A stretch of 64,000 bases of DNA from NCBI GenBank assembly GCA_964591445.1, contig CAZQAW010000002.1, positions 3,394-67,393 of the forward strand. Reading direction: 5' to 3'. A program made the translations under genes and the position numbers. Below are positions 19,293 to 55,568 of this stretch, piece by piece (the first letter of the stretch is position 1; each line of letters opens with the position of its first letter). The notes beneath the pieces are model-generated. The model did no database searches. It had not been told where the DNA came from and saw only the letters and a program-made list of their open reading frames with translations. The DNA is from an uncultured Candidatus Saccharibacteria bacterium (GTDB lineage Bacteria; Patescibacteriota; Minisyncoccia; Phycocordibacterales; UBA9973).

Positions 19293-19334
19293 GACTGTAC
19301 ATTTTTAAATCTTCGATACAAGTGCATCAAAAAC

Positions 19335-19372
19335 TTGAAAATGTACAGGGTAGCGAATGTGTTGCTACCCTG
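19335..19372. terminator. Hairpin TACAGGGTAGC-GAATGTGTT-GCTACCCTGTA 3' of the minus-strand gene 19397..20845.
   Basis: 11-bp perfect stem followed by a T-rich run on the minus strand. Confidence 0.45.
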
Positions 19373-19396
19373 TAGTTTACTCTTAAAGCAATCTTT

Positions 19397-20845: not shown

Positions 20846-21035
20846 GTGAATATGTTTTATTTTGTTTGTTTACAAGATTTTCTGGCGTAGGGCGGGGTGT
20901 CGGGAAAAATAAATACACTTCTTACGTCTGGTTATATGATAGCATATCCAAAGCTAAATGTCAATACCCCCTCTACCCCATTTTCCCCTTATTTCTATAG
21001 GCTAAAATCGGCCTTTCGGGTATACTTTATGTATA

Positions 21036-34813: not shown

Positions 34814-34982
34814 ATGAAGTACACCTATTATAGACTTTAAAAGTATATTTGCAAAATTATCCACAGCTTAATTAACATGTGGATAAGGTGTGGAAAGATA
34901 TGAATAACTTTTCTCACCCCTCGCTTCGCAAGGGAGGAAAATTGAGCTTGTAAAATAAAATATTTTATTGTATACTCCCCTC
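34814..34982. promoter_or_regulatory. Region upstream of dnaA with perfect DnaA boxes TTATCCACA (34857-34865) and TGTGGATAA (34878-34886), plus TGTGGAAAG (34889-34897). It also contains the rpmH promoter.
   Basis: Exact matches to the TTATNCACA consensus in both orientations, 10 nt apart. Classic rpmH/dnaA divergent arrangement. Confidence 0.55.
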
Positions 34983-37022: not shown

Positions 37023-38624
37023 TTAATTTAACTTCAAACTCCACAAGCTCGAATCTTTTTTATTGATGAAGAAAAGTTTGGTGCCGGTAGAGTCGATGGC
37101 GAGTGATACTGCATCGATATCTTGCCCGACGCTTTCAGTCGGAGTTTCGATGAGCGTATTTGTTCCAGTTTCAAAATCTATTTTCCAGATCACGTCAGAA
37201 AAACTCACAAGACCTTGGTACCACACGTCCGGATATTCCCCATTTGCCATTGCTGTTGGTACGCCGCAATAGGCAATGGTGTTTGTTGCAAAGACGCACT
37301 TTGCCGGCAAGGTTGTAAATGGAAATGTCGTTCGTGTCTGTTTTGCTCGGTTGTAGTCGTTGAACGTCACTATTCCTCCGACAGTTGCGCTATACAATAC
37401 ATGGTTTTTGTCTGGGCTCATAAGCGTAGTAAGGCCGTTGATCGGGCCAAGGATTTTTGAAGTTGTTTTTTTGTCTGTATCGAGCATATACGCATATCCG
37501 GGCACGGCGCTCGAAGCTTTTGTTGTAAGCAAGACTGTGTTTGTATTTACAAACTGCGGTTTCCATTCACTAAAAGGTGATTTGAATACAGAAGTTGTCT
37601 TGTTTTGCGTTGGCATGAACACATCGCCGTTTACTCCCCCGTCAAAACGTGTAAGATAAAATGTTCGTCCCACATCTCCTTTCACGAAAGACAAAATATT
37701 TTCCGGCAAAAACACCCCCTTGAGTTCTGTGTTTGTATTCTCTACGCCGATCGTATGTGTTGGTACTGTGCCGGCAAAAGTTTGAATTGCTTTTGTGTCT
37801 TGGTTGAGATATCTCATGACCACAGTTTCGCTTCCTGGTATAAATATCGCTTCGTGTACGCGTGGAATGGTTGTCGTTGTAACTTTCTCTACGCTCGGAC
37901 TATCGAGCAATGTCTCATATATACGCCCGGTCGCTTTTTCGGCGTAACGCACCACTTCTTTTTTAGTGATCTGAGGTGGAGGCACAGGCTTGGTGCACTG
38001 GAATGGAGTATTTAATTTTTCTCGTGTTGCTGCATCAACTTTGCCTGTTGGTTCTTGTGTTGCTTCGTCAAAAATAAAGAAGATTCGTTGGAAAATTTTC
38101 ACCGCGTTTTCTGTTGCCAGATCAAAAGTTGTGCTTTCCTTCCCCGGAGAACCGACGCCACTTGGCGCGATCTGTAGTTCACCGCACTGGTTGAAAAGTT
38201 TTTGCAGTTCTTTGACGTCAGTGTTCTTGGTTTTAATTCCCAGATCTTTTTTAAATACAAAAGTTGTTTGGGCTGTAACAACCTCTTTGTCTTCTTGTAC
38301 TTGGCCTGGCATGACGTCGACTTGCGCAAAGCCAAAACCTGCAACTGGATTTCCAGAAATCTGAATGAGCTTCTGTTCTTTGCTTGGAGTTGTATTTGTA
38401 TCAGTTTCTGCTGGTGTTGTGTCCGGAGTAAGCGGAGTTTCATTTTCGTCTACTTTTGTATTTGATCCAAAAGGAAAGAAGTCGCGAAGCGTGATCCCGC
38501 TTCCGTCTTGTAAAGGCTCGCCTGTGGCGGTCGTCGCAGATCTGCCTTTTAAATAAAGCAAACCGCCAAAGACCGCAGCCCCGACAACAATGAGTATGAC
38601 AATGATAATAAGTGCTTTTTTCAT
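37023..38624 (-). CDS. Membrane-anchored secreted protein with a putative peptidoglycan-binding-like segment. Function unknown.
   Basis: N-terminal TM, Thr/Pro-rich linker, an L..LF...G...G.PG.....FD..T..AVK.FQ pattern, and beta-rich C-terminal repeats. Confidence 0.4.
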   Translation of the reverse strand: MKKALIIIVILIVVGAAVFGGLLYLKGRSATTATGEPLQDGSGITLRDFFPFGSNTKVDENETPLTPDTTPAETDTNTTPSKEQKLIQISGNPVAGFGFAQVDVMPGQVQEDKEVVTAQTTFVFKKDLGIKTKNTDVKELQKLFNQCGELQIAPSGVGSPGKESTTFDLATENAVKIFQRIFFIFDEATQEPTGKVDAATREKLNTPFQCTKPVPPPQITKKEVVRYAEKATGRIYETLLDSPSVEKVTTTTIPRVHEAIFIPGSETVVMRYLNQDTKAIQTFAGTVPTHTIGVENTNTELKGVFLPENILSFVKGDVGRTFYLTRFDGGVNGDVFMPTQNKTTSVFKSPFSEWKPQFVNTNTVLLTTKASSAVPGYAYMLDTDKKTTSKILGPINGLTTLMSPDKNHVLYSATVGGIVTFNDYNRAKQTRTTFPFTTLPAKCVFATNTIAYCGVPTAMANGEYPDVWYQGLVSFSDVIWKIDFETGTNTLIETPTESVGQDIDAVSLAIDSTGTKLFFINKKDSSLWSLKLN

Positions 38625-38625
38625 A

Positions 38626-40191
38626 TTATTTACAATTACCTCCGTAGACCGAAAAGTGTGCGGCCGATATATCTCTCCAAACTAATATCTTAGATGGGTT
38701 GACTCCTCCGTTTACTAAAGTGGTTTTTTCTGCCGCCGTTTTTACTTCATATATTGCACACAAGCCGGCATTTTGCGCACTCGTTATAAATAGTTTAACA
38801 TTTTCTGCTGTTGGTGAAGCTCCGTCAAAGTTCGCGTCAATACATGTGCCAGCTGGGTGACAAGCAGCTTTATGTGTACGTGACGGCTGCCATGCTTCGG
38901 TCACTCCCCATTTTTCACCAATGGCGCTGCTTGCAAGTGCGGTCGTCATCGTTTGCAAATGCTGCTTCAGTATTTTTTCTACTTTTGTTCCCCTGCTGTT
39001 TTTGATAGGAACATCTACACCACCAGCTCCACGCAGTTCTATGCAATCTGTCGGACATCTTCCTGTGCCTTGTGGGTATTCGATGTTCAAGACAGTGCCG
39101 TCTTCTGCTACTTCTTCTACTGTGATAGTTTGCTTGTTTAGATCCAAATTGATCTCAAGCAGTTTTGGATTGAGCGTATTTAATATCGCGTACGCGCCAA
39201 GTACCAAGATAAGACCCAAGATCGCGTTTGTCATTCTCCCCTTCGCGCTTTCTTTGCTTGTGATGACATCGCTTGACATGTATTCAATACCCCCAATGAC
39301 AAGCATAAGCACAGCGAGCACTCCGGCAAGCGCAATACCGATACGGAATATGATTTTCAAATAATCTGCTACTTTTGTATCAGTGGTGTCGATTGTTGAA
39401 AGTCCGGGAAGTGGCGCAAGCAAGCAGTATTGGTTTGGAATACAACCAGGTTCTGTTGCGGCACTTACGCCATTGCCAGAGTTCAAAACTTGTCCGGGTT
39501 TTGCAGATGTGCGGAAGAATCCGTCGAAATAATTTGTATTGGTTGCGGTATTGTAGACCTGATAATAATAGTCTGTGTTGCCATTCAAATTTTTGAGTTC
39601 TATTTTTGCGTTAAATGTCCCTGGCTGTGTACTTTTGAAGAACTCACCAAGTTTTTGATCGTATGTCCCCGGTCCAGCCGAACTATACCGTGCTCCAAGA
39701 GTAAACGATCCTGTGCCTGCAATTATTATCTTTAAATTGATAGTTGCTTCTTGAAATCCAGCATTCTGGGTATCGAGCAATACTGATACTTCTTTGTCTG
39801 TTACGTCTTTTTCTTTTTCTGTTTTGAAACAAATATCTGATCCATATATCGGCGTCTGAGTACTACTGCTTGCATCAGTTACAAAGATGCAATAGTCTGT
39901 ATCTATTTTTAGGCCCGTAAGGCGTTTTGAGAGCATATTGTTTGGGCCAAGTGCAAATGGGGGCGTGAAAACAAATTGAGTTCCATCGACTCCGTTTTCT
40001 CTATACCCAATTTTTATGCTTGATCCAGTTGGTTCGAGAATCTTTCCTGTAATAAGGGCAGAGTTTATTGTCTTCTCTTCAACTTTCATGTTAATTGCCT
40101 GCACAGCATCTGCTGTAAAAGGCACAATGAACACTACTGCAAGTAGTGCGATGACTGCATATTCTTTTATATAGCCCAAAAGCTTTTGCAT
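38626..40191 (-). CDS. Hypothetical membrane protein (N-terminal signal, two central TM helices, Cys-containing C-terminal domain). Possible secretion-apparatus component.
   Basis: Central IIFRIGIALAGVLAVLMLVIGGIEYM and AILGLILVLGAYAILNTLNP helices. The assignment rests on context with VirB4 and VirB6-like genes only. Confidence 0.35.
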   Translation of the reverse strand: MQKLLGYIKEYAVIALLAVVFIVPFTADAVQAINMKVEEKTINSALITGKILEPTGSSIKIGYRENGVDGTQFVFTPPFALGPNNMLSKRLTGLKIDTDYCIFVTDASSSTQTPIYGSDICFKTEKEKDVTDKEVSVLLDTQNAGFQEATINLKIIIAGTGSFTLGARYSSAGPGTYDQKLGEFFKSTQPGTFNAKIELKNLNGNTDYYYQVYNTATNTNYFDGFFRTSAKPGQVLNSGNGVSAATEPGCIPNQYCLLAPLPGLSTIDTTDTKVADYLKIIFRIGIALAGVLAVLMLVIGGIEYMSSDVITSKESAKGRMTNAILGLILVLGAYAILNTLNPKLLEINLDLNKQTITVEEVAEDGTVLNIEYPQGTGRCPTDCIELRGAGGVDVPIKNSRGTKVEKILKQHLQTMTTALASSAIGEKWGVTEAWQPSRTHKAACHPAGTCIDANFDGASPTAENVKLFITSAQNAGLCAIYEVKTAAEKTTLVNGGVNPSKILVWRDISAAHFSVYGGNCK

Positions 40192-40192
40192 G

Positions 40193-41188
40193 TTATTTGA
40201 TGATATCTATATAAAACGATTGTGTCGTAAGCTGGAAAAGTTTCGTTACGCTTTCAAGTTCAAGCCCTACTTTTGCTCGCCCATTCTCCCCTCCGCGAAC
40301 TACGAGCAAGTTTCTTGGAAGCGGAGTTTCTATTTTATTGTTATTGATACTCCATTTGTAAGCGATTTCGTTTGTGTTCGGATCTTTCACCGAGAAGAAG
40401 TATGGTTCTGCCACGATGCTTGCTTCTTTAGAAGTCAGCCGGTATCCGTTGTTGAGCGCTTGAGCAAAGAGTGTTCCCTGAAGCGGCGATTCTTCGTAAA
40501 ACACAACTTTCGGTTTACCTGGAACGATAGTTATGCTTGCCTCGCCTCCAGTCGTCTGACTTGTTGCGTTTACTGAAATAGTCTCTTCCTTGTTCAGATA
40601 GCTTGCTTTGAAAGTAAAAGTATTCTTGCCGTAGCCAGATGCACGTTGGTCGATAGTATAATTCTTTTTCCAGTTGTAAGAATACGCACCTGCTCCGCCG
40701 TTTGTAGATTTTGCATTTGGAAGCGCCACCACTTTGATGGTCGCTTCTGAGCTTGGCAATGCTTTTCCTTCATAAAACGGCGGCACGTATGAATCAAGCG
40801 CTTCCCACAGCATGTCGAATTCCGAAGGAGTGATAACGACCTGTTTTTCAAAAGTAGCGCTGTTTGACTTGATGACGGCGCGGATGGTTGTAGATACGCC
40901 AACGTCTGGCGCACGTACTGAAAATGTTTTAATGCCATTTGCATTACTTTTGAGTTTTCCATCTTGGTACCAAGTGATTTGAGAAAGATTGAGGTCAACA
41001 CTGTAGCTCGTCAAAGTAATGGTTACGTCTTGGTTCGGCTGTGGATTTTCCGGCGCCACAGTCATGCTGATATCGCTTGCGGTTAAGGCACTTTGAGCAT
41101 AAACATTTCCAGCTCCAAAAACCGAAGCCAAAAAGACAAGTGCGAGTGTGTGCACGAGGAAAACTTTGTAATGAAAACGAGAGTTCAT
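40193..41188 (-). CDS. Hypothetical secreted beta-rich protein.
   Basis: Signal peptide MNSRFHYKVFLVHTLALVFLASVFGAGNVYA. Translationally coupled (1-nt gap) to the upstream gene. Confidence 0.4.
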   Translation of the reverse strand: MNSRFHYKVFLVHTLALVFLASVFGAGNVYAQSALTASDISMTVAPENPQPNQDVTITLTSYSVDLNLSQITWYQDGKLKSNANGIKTFSVRAPDVGVSTTIRAVIKSNSATFEKQVVITPSEFDMLWEALDSYVPPFYEGKALPSSEATIKVVALPNAKSTNGGAGAYSYNWKKNYTIDQRASGYGKNTFTFKASYLNKEETISVNATSQTTGGEASITIVPGKPKVVFYEESPLQGTLFAQALNNGYRLTSKEASIVAEPYFFSVKDPNTNEIAYKWSINNNKIETPLPRNLLVVRGGENGRAKVGLELESVTKLFQLTTQSFYIDIIK

Positions 41189-41234
41189 TAGCTTAAGTAT
41201 AAAATACTTTGTATGAAAATACGAGGGAAAAGTC

Positions 41235-43067
41235 TTACTTTACACCCTTCTCTGCCATTTCGAGTTCGTCTTTAGATTTCTTGATTGCAAGCACTTGCGA
41301 CGGGTCAGACGTGATGATCTGGTCTTCGGTATAAGACGAGATGATTTTGATAGCGACGTGTTTGAGTCCGGCAAAGAAAATACCTTCTCCGACGTTTGAT
41401 TCAAGAAGCAAATATTTCTCTTCGTCTGTGAGGTTAAAGGTTTTTTGGAGTAAGTCGATCGATGACGGAGACTGTTTAAGTAGAAGTTGGAGCGAAGAGT
41501 TAGTAACAATCGGCACGCCGTACGGGCTTTTCATAAAGTCCCCTACGTCTTGAGTGATCGTACAAAGTCCAAGGTAGTATTTTCGGCCACGCTTTGCGAT
41601 CGAGTACAAGAACGACGCTGTATCGTCGGATTTCATCATCCACCACGCTTCGTCGACAACGAGCAAGCGCTTTTTCAAATTCTTGCGCACTGCGTTCCAA
41701 ATATAGTGCGTGACGATGTACATGGCAACCGGTTTCAATTCGTCTTCCATGTCGCGCACGGAAAAAACGACGAACTTTTTGTTGATGTCGACGTTTGAAG
41801 GCTGGTTTAAAAATGTAGACCATGAACCGCGAGTGAACTTTGCCAAGCGCTGAATGAGAGACTCACTTCCCTCCATGCCAGCTAAGACCATTTCAAAGTC
41901 AGTCAAAAGCGGCGGCTCGATATTTGAGAAATCTGAATCAGCGGTGATGTCTTTGATCGCGTATGTTTCGGTAATCGCGCGGTCGACGATGGAATCTTCT
42001 TCCGGAGTAAGGCCGCCAAGCATGATACGGAAAAGCCCGACCAAGTTGATCACGTTTGAACGAAGCACGTCCGCCGGAGTTTCATCTTCGCGAGGAATTG
42101 GAAGATCAAACGGGTTGATGTGGTGTTCTGAAGAAAGTGCAATGTTGAAGTATCGCCCGCCGACGGCTTCGGCCAAATATTCGTATTCTTTTTCCGGGTC
42201 GATCACGATAACTTCTGTATCGAACATGAGCGTACGAAGGATTTCGAGTTTTGTCGCGTATGATTTACCGGAACCAGATTTGGCAAAGATGATCGAGTTG
42301 TAGTTTTCCAAAGAAAATCGATCGAAAATGACGAGCGAAGAGTTGTGGCGATTTACGCCATAGAGTATTCCCTTGTCAGACGTAAGGTCAAACGAAACGA
42401 ATGGAAAAAGCGAAGAAAGCGGCTCAGAATTGAGCTTTTGGTGGACGTTCAAGAGGTCACTTCCGAGAGGAATGACTGAATCAAACCCTTCTTCTTGCTG
42501 GAAAAGTGCCGGTTTCAAATAGACAAGCTTTGATTCGAGGATAGACTTGATTTCGTTCTCAATTTTAAAAAGCTCATTTTCGTTGTTGCCGTATACTGTT
42601 ATATAAAGCCCGACGTCAAAAATCTTTTCTTGCGCTTGTTGCAAATTGTCTCGCAATCCTTCCAAGTCTTGATACGCGGTGTCGAGCATCGGGTCGCGAA
42701 CAAGGCCTTTGCTTTCGCGGATGTTGATCTGGCTTTGTACTTCGGCAACTTTCTTTTGGAACTCGCGGAGGATTTTTGCAGTTTCGATCGGATGGATGAA
42801 AATGGAAACGTCAAAGATCTTGTCGAGGTTGATGATCGGAGAGAACCAGTTGTCGGAAAGATAGCGTGGATACGAAATGACGAAGAATGTGCGAGCCATT
42901 TTGTCTCCCAAGTTAAGTGCCTTTGGTTCTATTTTGAGCGCAGACGGCGCAATGATATCGCGGAATTCAAGCGTTGCCGCTTCATAAATTTCCGTCGGCA
43001 AAACCGGAAGCACCTGCTTCTTCCCCGCTCCGTCATCTTTCTTTTTTAGAAAATCAAAAAGTGCCAT
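41235..43067 (-). CDS. virB4: VirB4/TrbE/TraC-family type IV secretion ATPase, C-terminal ATPase portion of 610 aa.
   Basis: Walker A IIFAKSGSGKSYATK, Walker B LLVVDEAWWMM, and family-typical blocks (GLCTITQDVGDF). Confidence 0.8.
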   Translation of the reverse strand: MALFDFLKKKDDGAGKKQVLPVLPTEIYEAATLEFRDIIAPSALKIEPKALNLGDKMARTFFVISYPRYLSDNWFSPIINLDKIFDVSIFIHPIETAKILREFQKKVAEVQSQINIRESKGLVRDPMLDTAYQDLEGLRDNLQQAQEKIFDVGLYITVYGNNENELFKIENEIKSILESKLVYLKPALFQQEEGFDSVIPLGSDLLNVHQKLNSEPLSSLFPFVSFDLTSDKGILYGVNRHNSSLVIFDRFSLENYNSIIFAKSGSGKSYATKLEILRTLMFDTEVIVIDPEKEYEYLAEAVGGRYFNIALSSEHHINPFDLPIPREDETPADVLRSNVINLVGLFRIMLGGLTPEEDSIVDRAITETYAIKDITADSDFSNIEPPLLTDFEMVLAGMEGSESLIQRLAKFTRGSWSTFLNQPSNVDINKKFVVFSVRDMEDELKPVAMYIVTHYIWNAVRKNLKKRLLVVDEAWWMMKSDDTASFLYSIAKRGRKYYLGLCTITQDVGDFMKSPYGVPIVTNSSLQLLLKQSPSSIDLLQKTFNLTDEEKYLLLESNVGEGIFFAGLKHVAIKIISSYTEDQIITSDPSQVLAIKKSKDELEMAEKGVK

Positions 43068-43068
43068 A

Positions 43069-43722
43069 TTATTTTTCGAGTTTGATAGACTGTGTTACTT
43101 CGCCAGGGTTAAAAATTTTATAAAAGAGTTCCACGATTTCTTCGGTGCCAAGCGCGACAGTGCGGATGCCGATGCGAGAAAGTCCTTGTTGGATGACGCC
43201 GATGCGCTGGTCGAGCTGGCTGCGTTTTTCTTCAAAGTTGATTTGGTCTGCGGTGCGTTTATCCGTCGGATCTTTTTGTTGGCCCGGAAGCAAATTTTTC
43301 AAACCGGCAATCGTCCCTTCACTTCCCAAAGCCGGCTGCGTGTATGGCACGGTGATGAAAAAGCTTTTCGTCATGATGTTGACGCTTTCGGTAAAAGAGC
43401 GGATGAATTCAATATATTCTCGAGTTTGGATTTTAAGGAGTGGTTCGAGCTGTTCTTTCATGCGGTTCTCGAGCAAGCCAAGATATGGGCGGATGTCGAG
43501 CCGGCGGGATTGCACAGAGATTTGTGTAGAAAAATCAAGCGAATTTAAAAAGTTCTGGAATTGCAAAAGCACTGCTTGCTGTTCGTCGACAGATTTGAGC
43601 GAAAGGTTGATGGACGACGCCAAAAGTACAGCGCGAATGCCGCCGTCTTTTAAAATAATGATACCGTCCCTGACTTCTTTGATCGGGACAAAATCTTGCG
43701 TTGCTTGAGCTCTGACTGCCAT
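43069..43722 (-). CDS. virB4: VirB4-family N-terminal domain encoded as a separate 217-aa ORF. Either a split gene or a frameshift at an A5/T5 run.
   Basis: TQDFVPIKEVRDGIIILKDGGIRAVLLASSINLSLKSVDEQQAVL is the characteristic N-terminus of Gram-positive/conjugative VirB4 proteins (PIKDIRDGII..KDG.Y..ILE...INF.L.S.EEQ). Its stop TAA is separated by 1 nt from the ATG of the ATPase ORF, in a different frame. Combined length 827 aa. Confidence 0.55.
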   Translation of the reverse strand: MAVRAQATQDFVPIKEVRDGIIILKDGGIRAVLLASSINLSLKSVDEQQAVLLQFQNFLNSLDFSTQISVQSRRLDIRPYLGLLENRMKEQLEPLLKIQTREYIEFIRSFTESVNIMTKSFFITVPYTQPALGSEGTIAGLKNLLPGQQKDPTDKRTADQINFEEKRSQLDQRIGVIQQGLSRIGIRTVALGTEEIVELFYKIFNPGEVTQSIKLEK

Positions 43723-43756
43723 TAGGTTTAGTATAGCACTTACTCTTTTATTTTAT

Positions 43757-43870
43757 GGTGTGTATTCCTCCTCTCCTAGCCAGGAGAGGACTACGGCTTG
43801 CCGAGTGGTGAGGTTGTTTGTTCCTGAACTCAACCTCACCCCGAACCTTCGGTCGACCCTCTCCTAGCCA
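43757..43870. repeat. GC-rich nested-palindrome element, copy c (composite): CCTCTCCTAGCCAGGAGAGG ... GTGGTGAGG ... CCTCACCCC GAACCTTCGGTCGA CCCTCTCCTAGCCAGGAGAGGG.
   Basis: Contains the same outer (CCTCACCCC/GGTGAGG), linker (CCGnACnTTCGnTC) and inner palindrome modules as copy a. Lies in the intergenic region between the virB4 N-domain gene and the prgI-like gene. Confidence 0.6.
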
Positions 43871-43879
43871 GGAGAGGGT

Positions 43880-44290
43880 TTATTTCTTTTTCACGTCCAA
43901 CACGTCGAGCGACCATGCCATGTCTTTGAGCTTGCTTTCGGAGAGTTTTGGTACGTATGAAGATGTTGGAATCGAAGATGCAGCTTCTTTGTTTATCTCA
44001 GACTGATCTCTCGGTATTTTCTTCCAGACGTAGAGTTTGCTCTTGCCGATGTATGCGATGTATGACTGCAAGATGTCAATAAAAGGCTTGTCGTTGACTT
44101 TGTAAAATGTGAGCGCAAGTGAAAGTGCGGCAATAGGAAGCATGATAAGCACAGCAAAAAAGAACGGCAAGATTTTGTAGATGACGAAACATATTCCCGC
44201 ACCGCCGGCCAAATACAAGAATTGTCGGAACGAGAACGGCCCAAAGATCTTGTCTTCAACGTCGATGAATTGTGGAACTTTGAATTGCAT
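43880..44290 (-). CDS. PrgI/VirB3-like small membrane protein of type IV secretion systems.
   Basis: MQFKVPQFIDVEDKIFGPFSFRQFLYLAGGAGICFVIY plus a second TM helix: the PrgI-family N-terminal pattern (x.FGP.t.RQF.yl). Confidence 0.5.
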   Translation of the reverse strand: MQFKVPQFIDVEDKIFGPFSFRQFLYLAGGAGICFVIYKILPFFFAVLIMLPIAALSLALTFYKVNDKPFIDILQSYIAYIGKSKLYVWKKIPRDQSEINKEAASSIPTSSYVPKLSESKLKDMAWSLDVLDVKKK

Positions 44291-44293
44291 ATA

Positions 44294-44980
44294 TTAGACC
44301 GCTTCGCGATAAGGATCTTTCACTGGTGCTTCATTTGAAGCGGGTTTTGGTGTGGGAGGATTTGGAATTGCTGAAGGCGCAACCGGCGTATAAGTTGTTT
44401 CCTTTTTCGGCAAAGAAAATGTTCCAGAAAGTTGCTCTTTGACAAAAGAAGGCTTGCCTGAAGTCGGATTCTCGATGCCATTTAAAATATTAGCGCGGGA
44501 TTGGAGAGGAGAACTTTTTGAAGAAATTGTTACAGGCGCTGACACGGGTGTAACTTTTGGTGCCTCAATTTCAATGCCTGACTTTTTAAGCGTGTCTGAT
44601 TCGATACTGCTTACCTCGTTATTTTCTGTTTGATCGTCCTCTTCCCCCACATCGTTAATCTCTTTCAATTCTTCTCTTATCACCGCAAAGATATCTGTGT
44701 TTACTTCATCTACGATTTTACCTACCACTACAGTATCTGTAATACCAAGCTTTTCTTCAAGCTCATGTTGGTAGTTGTTTGGAGATGTTGCGCCGAGCAT
44801 CACAAATGTAGTTATGAGCTCAAGGTCTCCGAGTTGAGAAATCGTAAGGTTATTTTTTTTACCAATTTCTACTAGCTTGCGTTGGTAGTCAGAAGACATG
44901 ATAGCCTTCTGTAAAGACTCCGGCACATTTGCGTACAAGTCTTTAAGTGTCTGTATGATTTCATCTTGCGTTGGTTGCAT
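44294..44980 (-). CDS. Hypothetical soluble protein in the T4SS-like locus.
   Basis: ORF coupled (3-nt gap) to the prgI-like gene. Pro/Ser/Thr-rich C-terminus. Confidence 0.4.
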   Translation of the reverse strand: MQPTQDEIIQTLKDLYANVPESLQKAIMSSDYQRKLVEIGKKNNLTISQLGDLELITTFVMLGATSPNNYQHELEEKLGITDTVVVGKIVDEVNTDIFAVIREELKEINDVGEEDDQTENNEVSSIESDTLKKSGIEIEAPKVTPVSAPVTISSKSSPLQSRANILNGIENPTSGKPSFVKEQLSGTFSLPKKETTYTPVAPSAIPNPPTPKPASNEAPVKDPYREAV

Positions 44981-45020
44981 ATATTTTTAGTATAGCGCAC
45001 TTTTTGTTTTCTAGTAGTGT

Positions 45021-48000
45021 TTAGTGGCCATGACTATCTGCTTTTGCTTCACTATGTCCACTTGATTTTGATGGTGTATCTTGACCCCCACTTGGTTCGT
45101 GGTACGTTGCGTGCGTGTGTGGAGCATGTGGTAGGTGTCCCTGCGAATGACTTTCATTTGTTTTCCCACTCCATTCAATTGCTCTTCTAATTGCTTGCAC
45201 GCCTCCAACTATCGAAGCTGCTACAACAGTTGAACCTGGTGCAAAACCTTCATTTATCATTCCTGCCCCTGTAGCGCCTGCTAGCACTAAGCCTGAACCT
45301 TGAGCGAATCCTTTACCAAGCTCTTCCATAATCTGTTTTGTTCCTTCCCAATTGGTTTTAAGAATAGTTGACTGAGCCTGGCTAAGCTTGTTTTGGGTGC
45401 TTCTCATTTCTTTTGACGCCTTCTTAGATTTCTCAAGAAGTTGTGCGTATCGTTCTTTGAGTTGCTCTCTTTGTCGAGTTTCTGCTTCGGTTATTGTTGT
45501 GCCTTTTTTCTTCGCTTCCGCGATTTTTTTATCGAGCTCAAGTACTTCTTTTCCTACTTCTCTTGCTGTGTCTTGAGCGGCAAGAGCTTTGCCTCTTTTA
45601 TCACCGAGCTCAGTTCTGAGTTCGCTTATGTGTGATGAGGTAATTTCCTTGCCGAACTCTTTAATGTTATCTAGTTCGTCTCGCTCATCATCCAAATAGC
45701 GTTTACCGGAACGTCGCATAAGTGTAGACTGCCACTGTTTTTCGCGAGCTGTCTTGATGCGTTCTTTGTTCTTCTCCATTTTCTGTATGCCCAATGATTC
45801 TTCCATGGAAGATTGTGCTTTTGTTGCCACAACTTTTCCATTTTTGTCTACATATTCCCCTTGCGCATTCATAGCGAATACCTTGCCTCCCTTTTCGTAA
45901 GCTCGAATATTCTGATCCACAAGTGCAGCTTTCTGGGTAAGATCGGCAACTTTTTTCTGGGCTGCATTTTTTTCATCGCTCTTATCAGGAAGTGTTTTTA
46001 TGCGTGCATTTTCAATACGAATCTGGTTTTGCAAGTCTTCCTTGATATCTTTATAGTTTGTTTGTTTGTCCTTTTCTTTCTCGATTTTCTTCTCTTCATC
46101 TTTGTATTTGTGTTCATCATAGCCAAGGCTCTTGCCGTATTTGTCGTCCTTCTCTGCCTTGCGAGCTTGGAGTCCAAGCCATCCACCATCTGTTGATTTA
46201 GTATCAAGCCCCGCAAACGAAAGACCCTTATTTAAGTTCATCCCTGTCTTTTCAGAAAGTTTGTTACCAACTGCGGTATTGCGTGCATCAAATGTTGATG
46301 TTGCAAGCTTGTTTGAAGCTGCAAGTGTTGCTCTCGCCATCATTCCGCTTAAGCCTTTTTTCGCCGCTGCGTCTTTAAGACCTTGGTTTTGTGTGGCGTT
46401 ATATCCCAATCTGCCAAGTGTCGCCCGTCCGGCGAGCGCGTAGCCTCCAGCAGCCAAACCTATTGCTCCGCCTGCAAGCGCAGTTCCCGCTTTGACCACT
46501 GCACCGCCGATTTCTCCTGACATATCAAGAGCAATTTTGCGCGCGCGCATGAGGAGCGTGACGATGATAAGGAGTGGGATAAGCACGCCGAGGATGATCT
46601 GTGTCGTTGTTTTGTCGCTGCCAAGATCTCGGAAAAAGTTCGTATTCATGAACATGATGATGAGATACATGAAGAACATGAATACAGGCACAACGAATGC
46701 TTGGCTAATAAGTTTACTCCACCAGCTTGAAAAACTCATTTCCCCTAATATTTTACCACCAGATGAAGGCATGATGAGCGAGATGAATGCAATCGGCGCG
46801 AATATCATCAGTATCCAAAGTCCCGCAACGCGCGCCATGAATAGAAATGCTACGCTCGCGAACACCCATATGCCGATACAGTTAATGACCGTCATTATAA
46901 GAGATATGATAATGAACTGTCCTGGTGGTGGTGCCCCGTTTACCCCAACAGCTTCTGGTACACCGCTTTGGCTTGTGAGTTTGAGTGTGGTTGCTTGCTG
47001 GAATATAGTTTGTGGATTAAATTTACTTACGATAGCCGTTGAAACATTTCTCGTATTTTCATTTATCCATACATTCTCTACTTTGTCATTACTTACACAT
47101 TTGCCGTCTACATACATACCACCGCAAATATTGTTATAAAACACTCCTCCTAAAATATTCGAAGCGTCTATGACTACTCGTGCAAAAAACAAGCTGAAGT
47201 TGAGGAGCAGCGCAACAAGAATGACATTTTTTATGGTATTTTTTGCGTTGACGTTGTGATTGCCAAGTATAGTGCCGATGCCCACCCACAGCAAAATAAA
47301 GATGAACATGATGTTGGCAATGTCACGAGCGATCTTCCAACCTTGCTCGACGAATGTTGCTCCGGAACCTTTATATGAATTGCTGTCGAGCGTGAACCCC
47401 ATTGCCCAGTCGAGAAGTTGTCCGGACAAGCTGAACAGGAATGATGTTGGAACGAAAAAAATGTAATAAAATGCTCGAGCAAAGCACCCAGCCCAAGTAT
47501 CTGATTCTAAAATGTCACATGTAGGAAGACTGTTATTGCCTACTGAGGTGGTGGGTCCGCCAAGTCCGTTGCTAACAGAGGATGTCACACTTGAGGTATT
47601 GTTCTGTACTTCAGTAGGGATGCCTTGGTTGTCGATAGAGATTTCGATTGCATTGGAAACTACACCATTCTGTGATACTGTGCCTGTTCCCAACGAAATT
47701 CCCGTATCCGAGGAAGCAACTGCGGAATAAGTAAAAGTGTTCTTTAAAACTGCTGCAGTTTCATACACACCGGTGCCGTCTGGGTTTAAAGTGACGGGGG
47801 CATCAGTGACGATCTTGGTTTTTACCGCATTAGCTCCCGACGTATCTTTTTCCCATATTGAAATAGTTACCTCATCGTCATTTGGGTCTACGCCAGAGCT
47901 GGTTACAAGTATTTTCCATGTTGACGTTGTTCCAGACAGTGTTGTGCCTCCGTTTGCAAGGTTGAGTTTTGCATATGTTTGCGCTCGCGCAGAAAAGACG

Positions 48001-48098
48001 GGAGCAAGCATGCTTCCCCCTACTATTCCTATCATCGCTATGATAACTACGATTTTTTTGAACATGTGTATGGTGTATACAGAAATAACCTGGCCCAA
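45021..48098 (-). CDS. VirB6/TrbL-like polytopic membrane protein (about 8 TM) with a long charged coiled-coil C-terminal extension and a His-rich tail.
   Basis: N-terminal signal, a cluster of hydrophobic helices (IFILLWVGIGTILG, VILVALLLNFSLFFARVVIDA, IIISLIMTVINCIGIWVFASVAFLF, FVVPVFMFFMYLIIMFM, ILGVLIPLLIIVTLLM), then K/E-rich sequence and HLPHAPHTHATYH. Confidence 0.45.
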   Translation of the reverse strand: MGQVISVYTIHMFKKIVVIIAMIGIVGGSMLAPVFSARAQTYAKLNLANGGTTLSGTTSTWKILVTSSGVDPNDDEVTISIWEKDTSGANAVKTKIVTDAPVTLNPDGTGVYETAAVLKNTFTYSAVASSDTGISLGTGTVSQNGVVSNAIEISIDNQGIPTEVQNNTSSVTSSVSNGLGGPTTSVGNNSLPTCDILESDTWAGCFARAFYYIFFVPTSFLFSLSGQLLDWAMGFTLDSNSYKGSGATFVEQGWKIARDIANIMFIFILLWVGIGTILGNHNVNAKNTIKNVILVALLLNFSLFFARVVIDASNILGGVFYNNICGGMYVDGKCVSNDKVENVWINENTRNVSTAIVSKFNPQTIFQQATTLKLTSQSGVPEAVGVNGAPPPGQFIIISLIMTVINCIGIWVFASVAFLFMARVAGLWILMIFAPIAFISLIMPSSGGKILGEMSFSSWWSKLISQAFVVPVFMFFMYLIIMFMNTNFFRDLGSDKTTTQIILGVLIPLLIIVTLLMRARKIALDMSGEIGGAVVKAGTALAGGAIGLAAGGYALAGRATLGRLGYNATQNQGLKDAAAKKGLSGMMARATLAASNKLATSTFDARNTAVGNKLSEKTGMNLNKGLSFAGLDTKSTDGGWLGLQARKAEKDDKYGKSLGYDEHKYKDEEKKIEKEKDKQTNYKDIKEDLQNQIRIENARIKTLPDKSDEKNAAQKKVADLTQKAALVDQNIRAYEKGGKVFAMNAQGEYVDKNGKVVATKAQSSMEESLGIQKMEKNKERIKTAREKQWQSTLMRRSGKRYLDDERDELDNIKEFGKEITSSHISELRTELGDKRGKALAAQDTAREVGKEVLELDKKIAEAKKKGTTITEAETRQREQLKERYAQLLEKSKKASKEMRSTQNKLSQAQSTILKTNWEGTKQIMEELGKGFAQGSGLVLAGATGAGMINEGFAPGSTVVAASIVGGVQAIRRAIEWSGKTNESHSQGHLPHAPHTHATYHEPSGGQDTPSKSSGHSEAKADSHGH

Positions 48099-48196
48099 CG
48101 TGGACAGAATACAACTTTAGTATATCATTTACTCCTTAAGAAAATACGAAAAAACAGTGCAAAACTTTTGTTTTGCACTGTTTTTCTTTGTTTTAT

Positions 48197-50470
48197 TTAG
48201 TAGACACCCAAGTTGCTTTCAAGTATTGGTACACCAAATGCGCTGTTGATGTTGATGACATCGGTAACGTGAATTTCGGCGTAGGCTCCGTTTGGCAATC
48301 CCCCTCCGTAGAACACGTCATCCAAGAATACACTGGTTGTTGGTATAAGTGACGCTGCCTGTTCTTGGACAGAAAGCAAGTCTTTTGGATACGATTTGCG
48401 TTGTGTTGGTCCGGTGTATGTGGTGCCGACGTTTGAGCCAGTCTTGTCGATACCGTCCACTTCTTTGCGGCAGCGGTAAAAGAGGTCTACTGCGTCTCGT
48501 GTGTCAAACTCTATCTGGTATATCTCAGCTTCCAAGTTCTTTACATCGTCTCCTGTTACCAAATTTGAGGTCATGGCTTGGAATGTGCGCACCAGTTTTT
48601 CGTATTCGGTATTGTTAGGGTCAGTTTGGTACGCGGCAAGGGCCTGTGGAAGTTGGCTGTTGATGTAGGTAAGCTTGCTGATATTTGATTTCATCTGCCC
48701 GATCTGCGCTTCGATTTCGGTGTATTCGTTCTGATAAGTCGGAAGTGAATTGTATAACTGGTTGATCTCTGCTGTTACTGTCGGCATGTTGAATACATTG
48801 AACTTATCCTTCATGATATCGATAAAGCCTTTGAGTTTGACCGGCGGATCATTCTCGCTCATGCCGCCTTCGATGATACGTTGGACGAGAGATATGGTTC
48901 GTTCTTTTGACATTGCGCTGTTTGTATCAACACCGGTGTATGCTCGGAACAAAACAGTAAAGAATGAAGCGATACCACTTGCTTTTTGTATTTCTGTCAA
49001 AGCCGTTGCTTCGTTTTGGTATACCGTATCTTGCCAGTTTGCGGCTGGGCCGGGCAAGCAGAAGTCTGCTTTGTAAATTGCCGGAAGCATCTGGTTGATC
49101 GCGCCAGTTTTTGTAAGCTTGTTTGCCCCATACGTATTCCCCGGTCCAAGACGATCCAAGTAATCTTGCTGGTCTTGTATAATTCCCGGAAGTCCAGTGT
49201 TGATATCAAACTCATTTGCTGGATGGTTCCAATGTGTTTGTGATACACCAGACCCTCCGTTTGAAGATGATCCTGTGTTGCTGCCTGAACCTCCGTTGTA
49301 TTGATAAGGATTTGTGCCAGAGCTTGAAGTATCTGCAAGCGAGCTCAAACCTTTTTGCATCATCTGGTTCAAAAGCGCGTCAAATATTGCCGTAAGCGAT
49401 GCATCCAAATCTTCACTGTTGATCAAAGAGTCTGTAGGAATATCGAGCGCGGTGTTGAGCTGATGTGAAAGCACTCCACCCGGTGTGCGAGTTTCTTCAT
49501 AAGTACAAGTATATTTACGCAAACGTTCTTTTGCCGCATTAATGTCTGCTTGATTATAAGATGCTCCATCAAATGGTTCATAACTTCCGGTATTGTTAGA
49601 AGCCTCGGGTGTGGGGAGGCCTGCAATAATCATGTCCTCGCTCTTGTCCCAGTCTGCCGGTGGTTCTTCGTAGTCGCTTGGCTCTACACATACTTTCAAA
49701 GAAAGAAATCCAAAGTTGTTTTGAAGATCTGTTTTTATTTCCTGTATCCTGTTTTGTCCATAACCGGCAATTCGACGAGAAAATTCGTCGCCGGTAATGA
49801 TAGTTGCGCCGATCTGGTTGTTCTGCGGAAGTTGGGTCATTGCAAGCCATCCGTCCCAACCCCCGACGGCAAAGTCGGCTTGGAATTGTTGTGCTTGCGC
49901 CGAACCAATAACTTTGTCTAAACTATATTGCGCGTACATGGAAAAATTTGCTTGAAGTGAGGCAATCAAGTTGCGTGCAATATCTTTACCGAAAGGAGAA
50001 ACGATCTGTATTTGCGCCGTCAAACTCATGAGTTCTTCGTCAGCGATACTTTTGAAAAATCTACCGGGGTTCTGTACGAATGCTGGGGAACCTTTGAATC
50101 CAGTGTTAATCCAGTTCACTGTCGCTTGAGTGATCTTTCGGAGCAATGTTTGTGCGGCAGCACGAGCAATTTTTTTCAAACAAGTTTCTTTGTTTTCAAG
50201 TGCTTTGGTCGCTGGGTCGTTGGTGTCTACTGCCCCACTTGTCAAACCTTCAAGCTTGCTTGACCCCAAGTTAAGAAGTTTGTTCAATCCGCATCCGATA
50301 CCAGCGCCAAGTATTGGGCCTGCACCTTGGAAGATGCTTGCTCCGCCGGAGAACTGCGCTTCAACCTTGCTTACTTCAATGATGAACAAGCCTTGTCCAA
50401 GTACTCCGACAAAAACGATGACTGAAAGTATTTTTTGTAGCCAGGACTTCATACGTTTGTAGTATATCAC
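48197..50470 (-). CDS. Large membrane-anchored extracytoplasmic protein (757 aa), function unknown.
   Basis: N-terminal TM (ILSVIVFVGVLGQGLFII) with the remainder predicted to be extracytoplasmic. Overlaps the next gene by 4 nt. Confidence 0.4.
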   Translation of the reverse strand: MIYYKRMKSWLQKILSVIVFVGVLGQGLFIIEVSKVEAQFSGGASIFQGAGPILGAGIGCGLNKLLNLGSSKLEGLTSGAVDTNDPATKALENKETCLKKIARAAAQTLLRKITQATVNWINTGFKGSPAFVQNPGRFFKSIADEELMSLTAQIQIVSPFGKDIARNLIASLQANFSMYAQYSLDKVIGSAQAQQFQADFAVGGWDGWLAMTQLPQNNQIGATIITGDEFSRRIAGYGQNRIQEIKTDLQNNFGFLSLKVCVEPSDYEEPPADWDKSEDMIIAGLPTPEASNNTGSYEPFDGASYNQADINAAKERLRKYTCTYEETRTPGGVLSHQLNTALDIPTDSLINSEDLDASLTAIFDALLNQMMQKGLSSLADTSSSGTNPYQYNGGSGSNTGSSSNGGSGVSQTHWNHPANEFDINTGLPGIIQDQQDYLDRLGPGNTYGANKLTKTGAINQMLPAIYKADFCLPGPAANWQDTVYQNEATALTEIQKASGIASFFTVLFRAYTGVDTNSAMSKERTISLVQRIIEGGMSENDPPVKLKGFIDIMKDKFNVFNMPTVTAEINQLYNSLPTYQNEYTEIEAQIGQMKSNISKLTYINSQLPQALAAYQTDPNNTEYEKLVRTFQAMTSNLVTGDDVKNLEAEIYQIEFDTRDAVDLFYRCRKEVDGIDKTGSNVGTTYTGPTQRKSYPKDLLSVQEQAASLIPTTSVFLDDVFYGGGLPNGAYAEIHVTDVININSAFGVPILESNLGVY

Positions 50471-51378
50471 TCTCTTGCGAAATATTGCTGTAGAATTTCA
50501 AGTGCATTGCCAGGTTCTTCTCCATATTTCTCATATTGCGCAAGCCCCACAAGCCCAACAAGTGGGTTGTCGTAGAAATACGTCATGTTCGATACTGCTA
50601 CGCCGGTTTTGTATGACGCATTTGCAAAGTCAAGTGCGAGCTTCGCGGTTGCTTGGGGTACTTCTATTTTTTTGACTGCCTCAGCTAGGTCAAGATATGC
50701 CTTGCCTATCGTCTCAAGCTCTTTTGCTTTGCCTTCGTTCGCTTGGTCGATCGATGTTTCGAGTACGACAAGTTCGGTACCGATGCCTTTTTTCAGATAT
50801 GTTTCAAGAGTTTTGTCGAAGTTTTTTGCAAAGCTTGTATTCGTGCCGCCGGTTTTCATGTCGGCAAGTGTGTATTTGTCCTCGATATCTTTTTGCAAAG
50901 CCGCGTTCTGGCCGATCTTCTCTGCCAAGTCGTTGATGGATTGTTCTGTCAACGCCCCGGCTTCTTTAAGAGAAATGACTGTTGCGAAAATTTCTTTTGC
51001 AAAAGCTTCCGTTTCGTTGTCGTTCATTTCTATCTGCTCATCAAGGCTTGCGCCGGTTTTGATGGCGACTTGGCGTTTGCGTTCGTCGATCTCTGCTTTG
51101 TCGCTTGTGCCGTCTTTGTCGGTGTCCGCACTTGTTGCATCCGTTCCCCATAGAGCTTCTTCCCAATCCGGAATGCCATCTTTATCGGAATCTTGCGTGA
51201 CAAGTTCTTGGACCGTCGTGTGGATGACTTCTTCATTTTTTACGATCACTTTTTTCTGGTAGCGTACATACAGCCACACCGCTATGCCTACAATAAGCAG
51301 TATGACGATGATCGTTGTAAATTTTTTGCTCGGTAAATAACGCTTCATATTACTTGAATTTCGGAGTTTTAGACGCAC
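50467..51378 (-). CDS. Membrane-anchored protein with TSP3/dockerin-like Ca-binding Asp repeats.
   Basis: DSDKDGIPDWEEALWGTDATSADTDKDGTSDKAEID repeats follow an N-terminal TM. Confidence 0.4.
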   Translation of the reverse strand: MRLKLRNSSNMKRYLPSKKFTTIIVILLIVGIAVWLYVRYQKKVIVKNEEVIHTTVQELVTQDSDKDGIPDWEEALWGTDATSADTDKDGTSDKAEIDERKRQVAIKTGASLDEQIEMNDNETEAFAKEIFATVISLKEAGALTEQSINDLAEKIGQNAALQKDIEDKYTLADMKTGGTNTSFAKNFDKTLETYLKKGIGTELVVLETSIDQANEGKAKELETIGKAYLDLAEAVKKIEVPQATAKLALDFANASYKTGVAVSNMTYFYDNPLVGLVGLAQYEKYGEEPGNALEILQQYFARE

Positions 51379-51712
51379 CGTAGAAAAGTACTGGAATCAC
51401 TGGGTAAGGTGTGCCCACATCAGTAAAACATCCTGGTGATGGAGCGGCTGCGTATTTGCCAAGTATTTGTTTACCGGCAGTTGGAGAGTTTACGCTTCCC
51501 GGAATTCCTATTGGGAAAAAGTAGTTTGTCGCTGGCCAAGCACCGTTGGGAACTATGGTTACCGGTCCATATCCTGCACAAGTTATGCCGGGAATGCTTG
51601 AAGATACGATTTTTGTACTACCAAAGTTGCGAGTCACAAATGCATCCGCATAATCAAAAAGCGCAAAAGATATAAGTGCGAAGAACAATATGACAAATGT
51701 AAGCCTTCTCAT
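51350..51712 (-). CDS. Small secreted protein. Start refined to MRRLTFVILFFALISFALFDYADA.
   Basis: Clear signal peptide at the internal Met. The longer ORF would overlap ksgA. Confidence 0.4.
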   Translation of the reverse strand: MRRLTFVILFFALISFALFDYADAFVTRNFGSTKIVSSSIPGITCAGYGPVTIVPNGAWPATNYFFPIGIPGSVNSPTAGKQILGKYAAAPSPGCFTDVGTPYPVIPVLFYGASKTPKFK

Positions 51713-55532: not shown

Positions 55533-55568
55533 AAAAGCCGATGCATACAGTATGCATCGGCTTTTTTT
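55533..55568. terminator. Bidirectional terminator AAAAGCCGATGCATA-CAG-TATGCATCGGCTTTTTTT.
   Basis: 11-bp perfect stem flanked by A and T tracts, between convergent genes. Confidence 0.6.

Follow-up and report, generated by a model that had tools for sequence, protein, structure and literature searches.

Gene organisation

We have analysed a stretch of 64,000 nucleotides (nt) from contig CAZQAW010000002.1 of the assembly GCA_964591445.1, in the following referred to as the window, in which the region 37023-51712 on the minus strand encodes components of a type IV secretion system (T4SS). A sequence-only reading of this DNA had described the region as a chromosomal T4SS-like locus with a split VirB4 ATPase, a PrgI/VirB3-like protein, a VirB6-like protein and at least six secreted or membrane-anchored proteins. 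The coordinates and strand of its open reading frames (ORFs) were checked against the window sequence, and all named ORFs were found in place on the minus strand. The region comprises twelve tightly packed, co-directional ORFs, eleven of which are itemised below by their coordinates; the gaps between them are mostly 1-46 nt, and gaps of 14, 131 and 157 nt also occur. In the direction of transcription the genes are arranged in the order H-G-F-VirB6-like-E-PrgI-TrsD-like-VirB4-C-B-A. Seven of the encoded proteins are unnamed (A, B, C, E, F, G and H), and six of these are exported or membrane-anchored, as an N-terminal hydrophobic segment is present in A, B, C, F, G and H, in agreement with the number given earlier.

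37023-38624, minus strand: gene A, 533 amino acids (aa); N-terminal anchor or signal, PG_binding_1 domain, conserved C-terminal domain of about 300 aa
38626-40191, minus strand: gene B, 521 aa; signal peptide, FN3-like domains, VirB2-like pilin hairpin (aa ~271-345), Cys/His-rich C-terminal domain
40193-41188, minus strand: gene C, 331 aa; N-terminal transmembrane helix, then three Ig/FN3-like beta-sandwich domains in tandem
41235-43067, minus strand: VirB4 ATPase of the CD1110/MPF-FATA type, 610 aa, by NCBIfam conju_CD1110 and Pfam P-loop_TraG
43069-43722, minus strand: TrsD-like protein, 217 aa, the VirB4 N-terminal domain as a gene of its own, by NCBIfam and hhalign
43880-44290, minus strand: PrgI/VirB3-like membrane protein, 136 aa
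44294-44980, minus strand: gene E, 228 aa; helical N-terminal part, Pro-rich tail, terminal DPY motif
45021-48065, minus strand: extended VirB6/TrbL-like polytopic protein, ~1014 aa from a likely internal ATG start, by family-level evidence
48197-50452, minus strand: gene F, ~751 aa, exported; conserved N-terminal domain of ~370 aa, coiled-coil, variable C terminus
50467-51348, minus strand: gene G, ~293 aa; transmembrane anchor (residues 20-38), thrombospondin-type-3-like, Ca-binding, Asp-rich repeat, helical domain
51350-51712, minus strand: gene H, ~120 aa, small exported protein with a hydrophobic N terminus

The comparisons with related loci below refer to a set of 80, the sequences of which end at uvrD.

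VirB4 is encoded by two adjacent genes

The identity of the VirB4 ATPase is well established. The 610-aa protein scores 380.7 bits against NCBIfam conju_CD1110 (cut-off 325), with the match covering profile positions 182-733 only, and it is further matched by Pfam P-loop_TraG (1e-25) and by the solved C-terminal domain of VirB4 (PDB 4ag5, 3.9e-41). Both the Walker A motif (AKSGSGKS at residue 262) and the Walker B motif (LLVVDE at residue 468) are intact. Compared with VirB4 proteins encoded by a single gene, the protein is shorter by ~190 residues at its N terminus.

A separate ORF of 217 aa is located 1 nt upstream of virB4. In NCBIfam this ORF matches VirB4_plasma at positions 102-220 (1e-8) and CD1110 at positions 2-119 (5e-5), all below the respective cut-offs, and a Pfam TraC-like domain is precomputed on a 98%-identical orthologue. 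Its score against the NCBIfam TrsD family (E 1.6e-5, 24.8 bits) is far below the cut-off of 200; we therefore refer to the protein as TrsD-like in architecture and not as a member of that family. A search of PDB sequences with the family profile yielded nothing informative. As alignment target we used the 797-aa single-gene VirB4 of the Clostridium botulinum plasmid pCDC3875. A profile of 41 TrsD-like orthologues aligned to residues 24-203 of this protein (hhalign E 6e-6), and the 610-aa ORF aligned to residues 189-757 (E 2e-89, 32% identity). Thus, the two ORFs tile one plasmid VirB4, and the earlier call of a split VirB4 was correct. In 76 related loci the halves are likewise encoded separately, by genes for 209-234 aa and ~610 aa, and a frameshift artefact is therefore dismissed; as judged by these alignments, the split is a TrsD/TrsE arrangement.

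One stretch of ~15 residues of the plasmid VirB4 is matched twice, by the C terminus of the TrsD-like protein (…FYKIFNPGE…) and by the N terminus of VirB4 (…LFDFLKKKDDGAG…) (window 43055-43080; plasmid VirB4 residues 189-203, L081:8437-10830), suggesting that a short segment was duplicated at the site of the split.

The PrgI and VirB6-like membrane proteins

The PrgI/VirB3-like protein passes the hidden Markov model (HMM) threshold of Pfam PrgI with 43.8 bits (E 3.7e-11, cut-off 27), as had been predicted, and it is present in 76 of the 80 loci. The VirB6-like protein is composed of a signal peptide, a variable extracellular N-terminal domain, a transmembrane core, a long Lys/Glu-rich tail and a His-rich end, and the orthologous ORFs range from 608 to 1374 aa when measured from stop to stop. 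Here, the earlier assignment held for the family, whereas the single sequence failed the HMM threshold. A profile built from 60 homologues identified TrwI/VirB6 of R388 as the sole significant sequence in the PDB (E 1.4e-6), and 16 of these 60 family members individually match Pfam TrbL. In the AF2 model, the transmembrane core is predicted with pLDDT values above 90, and the five best Foldseek matches in the PDB are TrwI chains.

A pilin domain within a modular protein

Gene B contains a pilin domain that was overlooked in the sequence-only reading. Pfam PF18895 matches residues 281-339 with 29.3 bits (cut-off 26.6), there is a weak NCBIfam match to Mbov_0395 pilin-like, and the domain was found in 37 of 41 syntenic orthologues of gene B. 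When the window was searched for additional pilin genes with a local HMM, none was found besides gene B. Based on the signal peptide, the two-helix hairpin and the known topology of VirB2, the FN3-like and C-terminal domains of B are predicted to be located outside the membrane.

The C-terminal domains differ among the 41 syntenic orthologues and comprise VanY (8), Peptidase_M15_4 (3), NlpC/P60 (6), YkuD (4), SLT_2 (2) and Amidase_5 (2). A peptidoglycan-active domain is present in about half of these pilin proteins, and inspection of individual proteins confirmed the order of the domains. In metagenome contigs with a 100% identical VirB4, the pilin protein matches that of the window over residues 1-370 only and then continues into an NlpC/P60 domain. 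The exchange of the C-terminal part is clean, with the Cys/His-rich segment at 38628-39142 of the window being replaced by the NlpC/P60 segment at L082:13926-14461, in two JGI metagenome contigs, and the DNA on either side is 88-96% identical. In the literature searched (one library), no description of such pilin-domain fusions or swaps was found, which is no proof of novelty.

The C-terminal ~125 aa of B in the window (38626-39000) constitute a small domain that has not been described before; invariant in it are W, TEA, P, H, C, H, G, C, D and N, together with a late HF motif, and the residues include H440, C444, H445, C450, D452 and H512. Only two homologues were found in the databases, both of which are also fused to a T4SS pilin domain. 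The domain may be a metal-binding enzyme. An M15/VanY peptidase was considered from the H-x6-D...H pattern and rejected: no Pfam or PDB match was obtained at E 10, and hhalign gave a probability of 1% in comparison with the VanY domains of the syntenic orthologues, which does not place the domain among the LAS/M15 enzymes.

Conservation across related chromosomes

Homologues of VirB4 with 77-87% identity occur in 80 species-level genomes that carry the label Paceibacteria, Nomurabacteria or Parcubacteria. [quoted passage not shown] Identity to any plasmid VirB4 is at most 35%, the nearest being those of Firmicutes and Actinobacteria plasmids at 28-35%. The order uvrD-ksgA-G-F-VirB6-E-PrgI-TrsD-VirB4-C-B-A-(jag, yidC)-dnaA-dnaN was observed in nearly all of the first 30 loci listed, its genes were detected in 33-80 of the 80 loci, and the same flanks occur in nearly every related locus that is long enough to show both. 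The cluster is therefore fixed in the chromosomes of dozens of species, and this recurrence of gene order and flanks across related chromosomes excludes a recently acquired mobile element and all but rules out an integrative one.

The median identity to the window is 82% for VirB4, 67% for DnaA, 63% for the TrsD-like protein, 58% for DnaN, 51% for PrgI and 27-40% for the exported accessory proteins, and VirB4 was more conserved than DnaA in all 52 paired species comparisons. As far as sequence comparison can tell, the cluster is vertically inherited and under strong selection. This picture is extended by a strain in which VirB4 is 100% identical. There, C (99%), PrgI (98%), TrsD (98%) and A (97%) are nearly unchanged, the VirB6-like protein (64%), E (65%) and H (40%) are not, and the extracellular N-terminal domain of the VirB6-like protein could not be aligned at the DNA level. 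The outward-facing parts thus evolve fast, and an invariant motor combined with changing outward domains fits contact with variable host surfaces.

Conjugation genes and further ATPases

A Pfam scan of every ORF of at least 300 aa in the window did not identify a relaxase, a type IV coupling protein (T4CP) or an integrase, so that the absence of these genes noted in the sequence-only reading stands and no complete conjugative element adjoins the cluster within the 64 kb. None of the unnamed large ORFs contains a Walker A motif. The only other secretion-type ATPase in the window, the T2SSE-family protein at 21036-22739 (567 aa), possesses an MshEN domain and is PilB-like, not VirB11-like. Searches of Pfam and NCBIfam gave no DNA-binding or nuclease component in the cluster. 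The cluster is not flanked by a tRNA gene (the closest is 11.8 kb away), and it resembles its surroundings in GC content.

The PilB/GspE-type ATPase, which is encoded on the plus strand, adjoins two large exported proteins on the minus strand (16485-19292 and 19397-20845) in which Pfam detected no domain; this region, 16485-22739, may belong to a locus for type IV pili or adhesion. The neighbouring ORF of 461 aa at 22780-24165 carries an RNA polymerase alpha C-terminal domain only (residues 375-431), and its first ~370 residues have no match in Pfam. On the other side of the cluster, just beyond uvrD, two overlapping giant ORFs of 1196 and 913 aa occupy 55567-61895 on the minus strand; they are very rich in Lys and Glu, with an AT skew that falls as low as -0.36, and have neither a Pfam domain nor a Walker A motif. 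At 62013-63170 on the plus strand, ~10 kb from the cluster, a protein with LysM and Peptidase_M23 domains is encoded; in Patescibacteria, these domains accompany VirB1-like proteins (PMC12102498).

Accessory proteins

The sequence-only reading had proposed that the hypothetical ORFs may be structural components. They are conserved with the exception of H, and none could be assigned to VirB8, VirB5 or TcpC. Gene A has a transmembrane segment at residues 5-23 and a PG_binding_1 domain (28.3 bits, cut-off 23); orthologues are located at the same position in 70 of the 80 loci, and the family profile has no sequence homologue in the PDB. Gene C, directly downstream of virB4, represents an uncharacterised family with a fold that is predicted at high confidence, and according to this model the protein is a membrane-anchored stalk of three Ig-like domains. 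A VirB8/TcpC-like role was considered for protein C and rejected because the three Ig-like beta-sandwiches of the model are all-beta.

Gene E, which is detectable in 43 of 80 loci, has no transmembrane segment or signal peptide and is probably cytoplasmic. Residues D222, P223 and Y224 are nearly invariant across 41 orthologues, and no match was obtained in Pfam, NCBIfam or the PDB. Gene F, found in 48 of 80 loci, has a transmembrane or signal segment at residues 14-32 and invariant Gly, Trp and Cys positions in 40 orthologues; some orthologues additionally carry F5/8 type C (lectin-type) or Ig-like domains. It has no PDB or Pfam match, and its N-terminal domain of ~370 aa is without detectable relatives. 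For gene G, the profile matches in the PDB are to Ca-binding repeat proteins only (7c7r_B, 2.4e-4), accompanied by a weak NCBIfam match to the thrombospondin-3 repeats of CglD/MtsD; it was found in 36 of the 80 loci, many of which end before the position of gene G. Gene H gave two weak tblastn matches among the 80 loci and shares the low identity stated above even with its closest strain; by this comparison it is a variable, lineage-specific member of the cluster and not a conserved one.

Genomic context and putative regulatory elements

The cluster is flanked by jag/khpB, yidC, dnaA and dnaN on one side and by ksgA and uvrD on the other, which confirms the reported position between the oriC module and housekeeping genes. 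In a near-identical metagenome contig (L082), the gene for the RNase P protein was also called. Two perfect DnaA boxes are located just upstream of dnaA, and three boxes with one mismatch lie between dnaA and dnaN. GC skew gave no clear origin signal within the window, and the origin is therefore placed from gene context and DnaA boxes only. If the boxes at 34857-34886 mark the origin, it would be located in the divergent region between dnaA and rpmH, and the whole 15-kb T4SS cluster would be transcribed towards it, head-on to replication. Such an orientation would be odd for genes proposed to gain from origin-proximal dosage, the position of the origin being unsettled by GC skew.

A scan for promoters and terminators gave site counts in the region that were not above shuffled expectation, with one noteworthy site:

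48149-48186, minus strand: terminator-like hairpin with a stem of 17 bp and a T run after it, in the gap that separates gene F from the VirB6-like gene; from a consensus scan only

This hairpin may form the boundary between two transcription units, H-G-F and the remaining genes. The longest intergenic gap of the cluster, 157 nt at 43723-43879, separates prgI from the trsD-like gene and contains a GC-rich palindrome with an 11-bp stem (43855-43880). As its T run is on the plus strand, the palindrome does not serve the cluster as a terminator; a role in regulation or RNA processing is conceivable.

Proposed function

The identities of the five core parts, their conservation, the chromosomal fixation of the cluster and the absence of conjugation genes from the window are directly supported. 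A survey of 3,035 Patescibacteria genomes by Quinonero-Coronel et al. (2025) described a monophyletic clade of Patescibacteria VirB4 proteins nested in MPF-FATA, with systems that consist of TrsD, PrgI/VirB3, VirB6 and PF18895/VirB2-like pilins and that have almost no relaxases (PMC12102498). In Paceibacteria and Microgenomatia, the neighbourhood of these systems includes dnaA, dnaN, rnpA, ksgA and rpmH (PMC12102498), and a 2025 review regards them as a new branch of the superfamily (PMC12857230). In Southlakia epibionticum, Wang et al. (2023) demonstrated by transposon sequencing that the homologous cluster SEML1_0006-0019 is essential for epibiotic growth; this cluster also has no coupling protein or relaxase (PMC10633639). 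Together with our results, these studies support the earlier description of a Gram-positive-type, chromosomal and non-conjugative T4SS in a CPR bacterium (PMC12102498, PMC10633639). We therefore favour the view, to which we assign a probability of about 75%, that the locus encodes the chromosomal, vertically inherited T4SS of the Patescibacteria in its Paceibacteria form, which descends from monoderm conjugation machinery (MPF-FATA, CD1110-like) and serves a non-conjugative role at the host interface. Ancestry from monoderm plasmids is indicated by the 28-35% identity of the nearest plasmid VirB4 proteins and by the collinear gene order of pCDC3875, and since neither a relaxase nor a coupling protein accompanies the cluster, its job is probably not conjugation.

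From these data we infer the order of assembly, the roles of the accessory proteins and the substrate as follows. The VirB4 ATPase would work together with its detached TrsD-like N-terminal domain, and this motor would sit on a platform in the cytoplasmic membrane formed by PrgI/VirB3 and the extended VirB6. It would extract the VirB2-like hairpin protein from the membrane, assemble or present it, and power transport across the envelope. The peptidoglycan-binding protein A, the domain of the cell-wall-enzyme type on the pilin, the three-Ig stalk C and the proteins F and G would open the wall and contact the host cell, and the system as a whole would probably deliver or exchange proteins or other material at the interface between epibiont and host.

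Several points weigh against this interpretation. Neither a substrate nor an effector or a secretion signal was identified. A VirB8-like component of the cluster was found neither by PDB profile searches of A, E, F and G nor in the model of protein C, and the VirB6-like sequence on its own has no match in Pfam or NCBIfam. Being part of a protein of 521 aa with several domains, the pilin hairpin may be unable to polymerise like VirB2. A VirD4-like gene may be located elsewhere in the genome, as T4CP (VirD4-like) genes occur in most Patescibacteria genomes, mostly far from virB4 (PMC12102498). Finally, essentiality was shown for S. epibionticum only, which belongs to a different class, the Saccharimonadia (PMC10633639).

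It has to be considered whether the cluster might instead encode a device for attachment or cell-wall remodelling, in which VirB4 only assembles a surface structure bearing adhesins or hydrolases and no substrate is moved. The fusion of the pilin domain to Ig/FN3-like and peptidoglycan-active domains, the Ig-like protein C, the PG-binding protein A and the lectin-type domains in F orthologues would all be in keeping with such a device, as would the lack of a coupling protein in the window and the fact that VirB4 drives pilus biogenesis (PMC12102498). Nevertheless, the VirB6 channel subunit has been kept and conserved, and in related bacteria adhesion is already provided by type IV pili (PMC10633639), for which a PilB-like ATPase is encoded in the window. 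We regard such a device as unlikely, while noting that the sequence alone does not separate it from a transport system at the host interface.

Helicobacter ComB and the archaeal Ced system are T4SS-derived systems without a relaxase. By this precedent, the cluster might be a DNA-uptake machine that imports host DNA as a source of nucleotides, which the organism would be unable to make if general CPR biology applies (PMC10633639), and VirB4 does weakly match CedB (1.6e-9) and CedD (3.9e-5) of NCBIfam in the P-loop region. These matches extend over ~70 residues only and are far below the cut-offs, and there is the above-mentioned lack of a DNA-binding or nuclease component. Moreover, competence of S. 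epibionticum requires type IV pili and ComEC, and deletion of comEC abolishes transformation but not viability, whereas the T4SS is essential (PMC12857230, summarising PMC10633639), which argues against essential DNA uptake via the T4SS. Of the two uses that the sequence-only reading had put forward by inference, DNA uptake and host interaction, the former is thus weakened (PMC12857230), and we consider it quite improbable. That the cluster is an ordinary integrative conjugative element or its remnant, moving DNA between cells, is hardly credible: VirB4, PrgI, VirB6 and their order are homologous to those of Firmicutes conjugative plasmids, but Pfam detected no relaxase, T4CP or integrase among the window ORFs of at least 300 aa, there is no flanking tRNA gene and no deviating GC content, the dnaA/dnaN and ksgA/uvrD synteny is the same in nearly every sufficiently long related locus, and a VirB4 more conserved than DnaA is the opposite of a decaying remnant.

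Within the favoured interpretation of a T4SS at the host interface, it might be speculated that the Paceibacteria 'pilin' is not a subunit of a pilus but a VirB2-type membrane hairpin which is extracted and presented by VirB4 and carries exchangeable extracellular warheads, swapped as cassettes between strains so as to break through or reshape the walls of different hosts. The candidate warheads would be the VanY/M15, NlpC/P60, YkuD, SLT and amidase domains and, in the window, may include the undescribed Cys/His-rich domain. This idea is based on strains whose VirB4 proteins are 100% identical but whose warheads and extracellular VirB6 domains are not the same, and we offer it as doubtful; if true, an arms-race module would have been added to a motor that is otherwise frozen.

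No T4SS before that of the Patescibacteria had been shown to be essential to the bacterium carrying it, and identification of the transported substrate would account for the host-dependent life of a large share of the uncultivated bacteria. Papers of 2023-2025 have already described this type of system, including its lack of conjugation genes and its location next to dnaA, so that the locus is a further example and not a discovery. Our contribution is modest and consists of a clean example from the Paceibacteria in which all gene boundaries are resolved, direct evidence of the TrsD/TrsE-like split of VirB4, a high-confidence fold for protein C, and the observation that between strains the motor is invariant while outward-facing domains are swapped, which indicates the proteins that probably touch the host.

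Comparison with known systems

The plasmid pGO1 of Staphylococcus aureus similarly encodes a small homologue of the VirB4 N terminus beside a shortened VirB4, TrsD and TrsE (PMC12102498). The pGO1 system is conjugative, and the protein in the window is TrsD-like only in architecture. The C. botulinum plasmid pCDC3875, of the CD1110/CTn type within MPF-FATA, shares a VirB4 that is 32% identical over ~570 residues. Its genes read VirD4-x-VirB6-PrgI-x-VirB4-x-SLT, with which the order VirB6-PrgI-x-VirB4-x-cell-wall enzyme in the window is collinear except for the missing VirD4. The plasmid possesses VirD4 (CD1115), a MOBP relaxase typing and a single VirB4 of 797 aa, and no pilin is annotated in the stretch viewed. 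In contrast, the window has neither VirD4 nor a relaxase, encodes VirB4 by two genes, has an added pilin domain and is chromosomal.

The cluster SEML1_0006-0019 of S. epibionticum ML1 is likewise origin-proximal and free of relaxase and T4CP genes. Both share the core order VirB6-like - PrgI - TrsD-like (0009) - VirB4 (612 aa), followed by exported, lysozyme-like cell-wall hydrolases and an Ig-like protein. Two VirB6-like genes, six short pilins on the opposite strand, a PrgI of 300 aa and an NTF2-like protein occur in S. epibionticum only, whereas in the window there is a single VirB6-like gene, the pilin domain is part of one long fusion protein, and no NTF2/VirB8-like protein was recognised.

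The closest match is the Paceibacteria arrangement described by Quinonero-Coronel et al. (PMC12102498). Three details of the window are additional to the text of that study, namely the multidomain pilin with interchangeable domains of the cell-wall-enzyme type, the universal three-Ig-domain protein downstream of virB4, and a VirB4 that is more conserved than DnaA. The repertoires match: VirB4, TrsD, PrgI/VirB3, VirB6 and a PF18895 pilin near virB4 are shared, no relaxase or T4CP is nearby, the neighbourhood of dnaA, dnaN, rnpA and ksgA and the host class are the same, and nothing essential differs.

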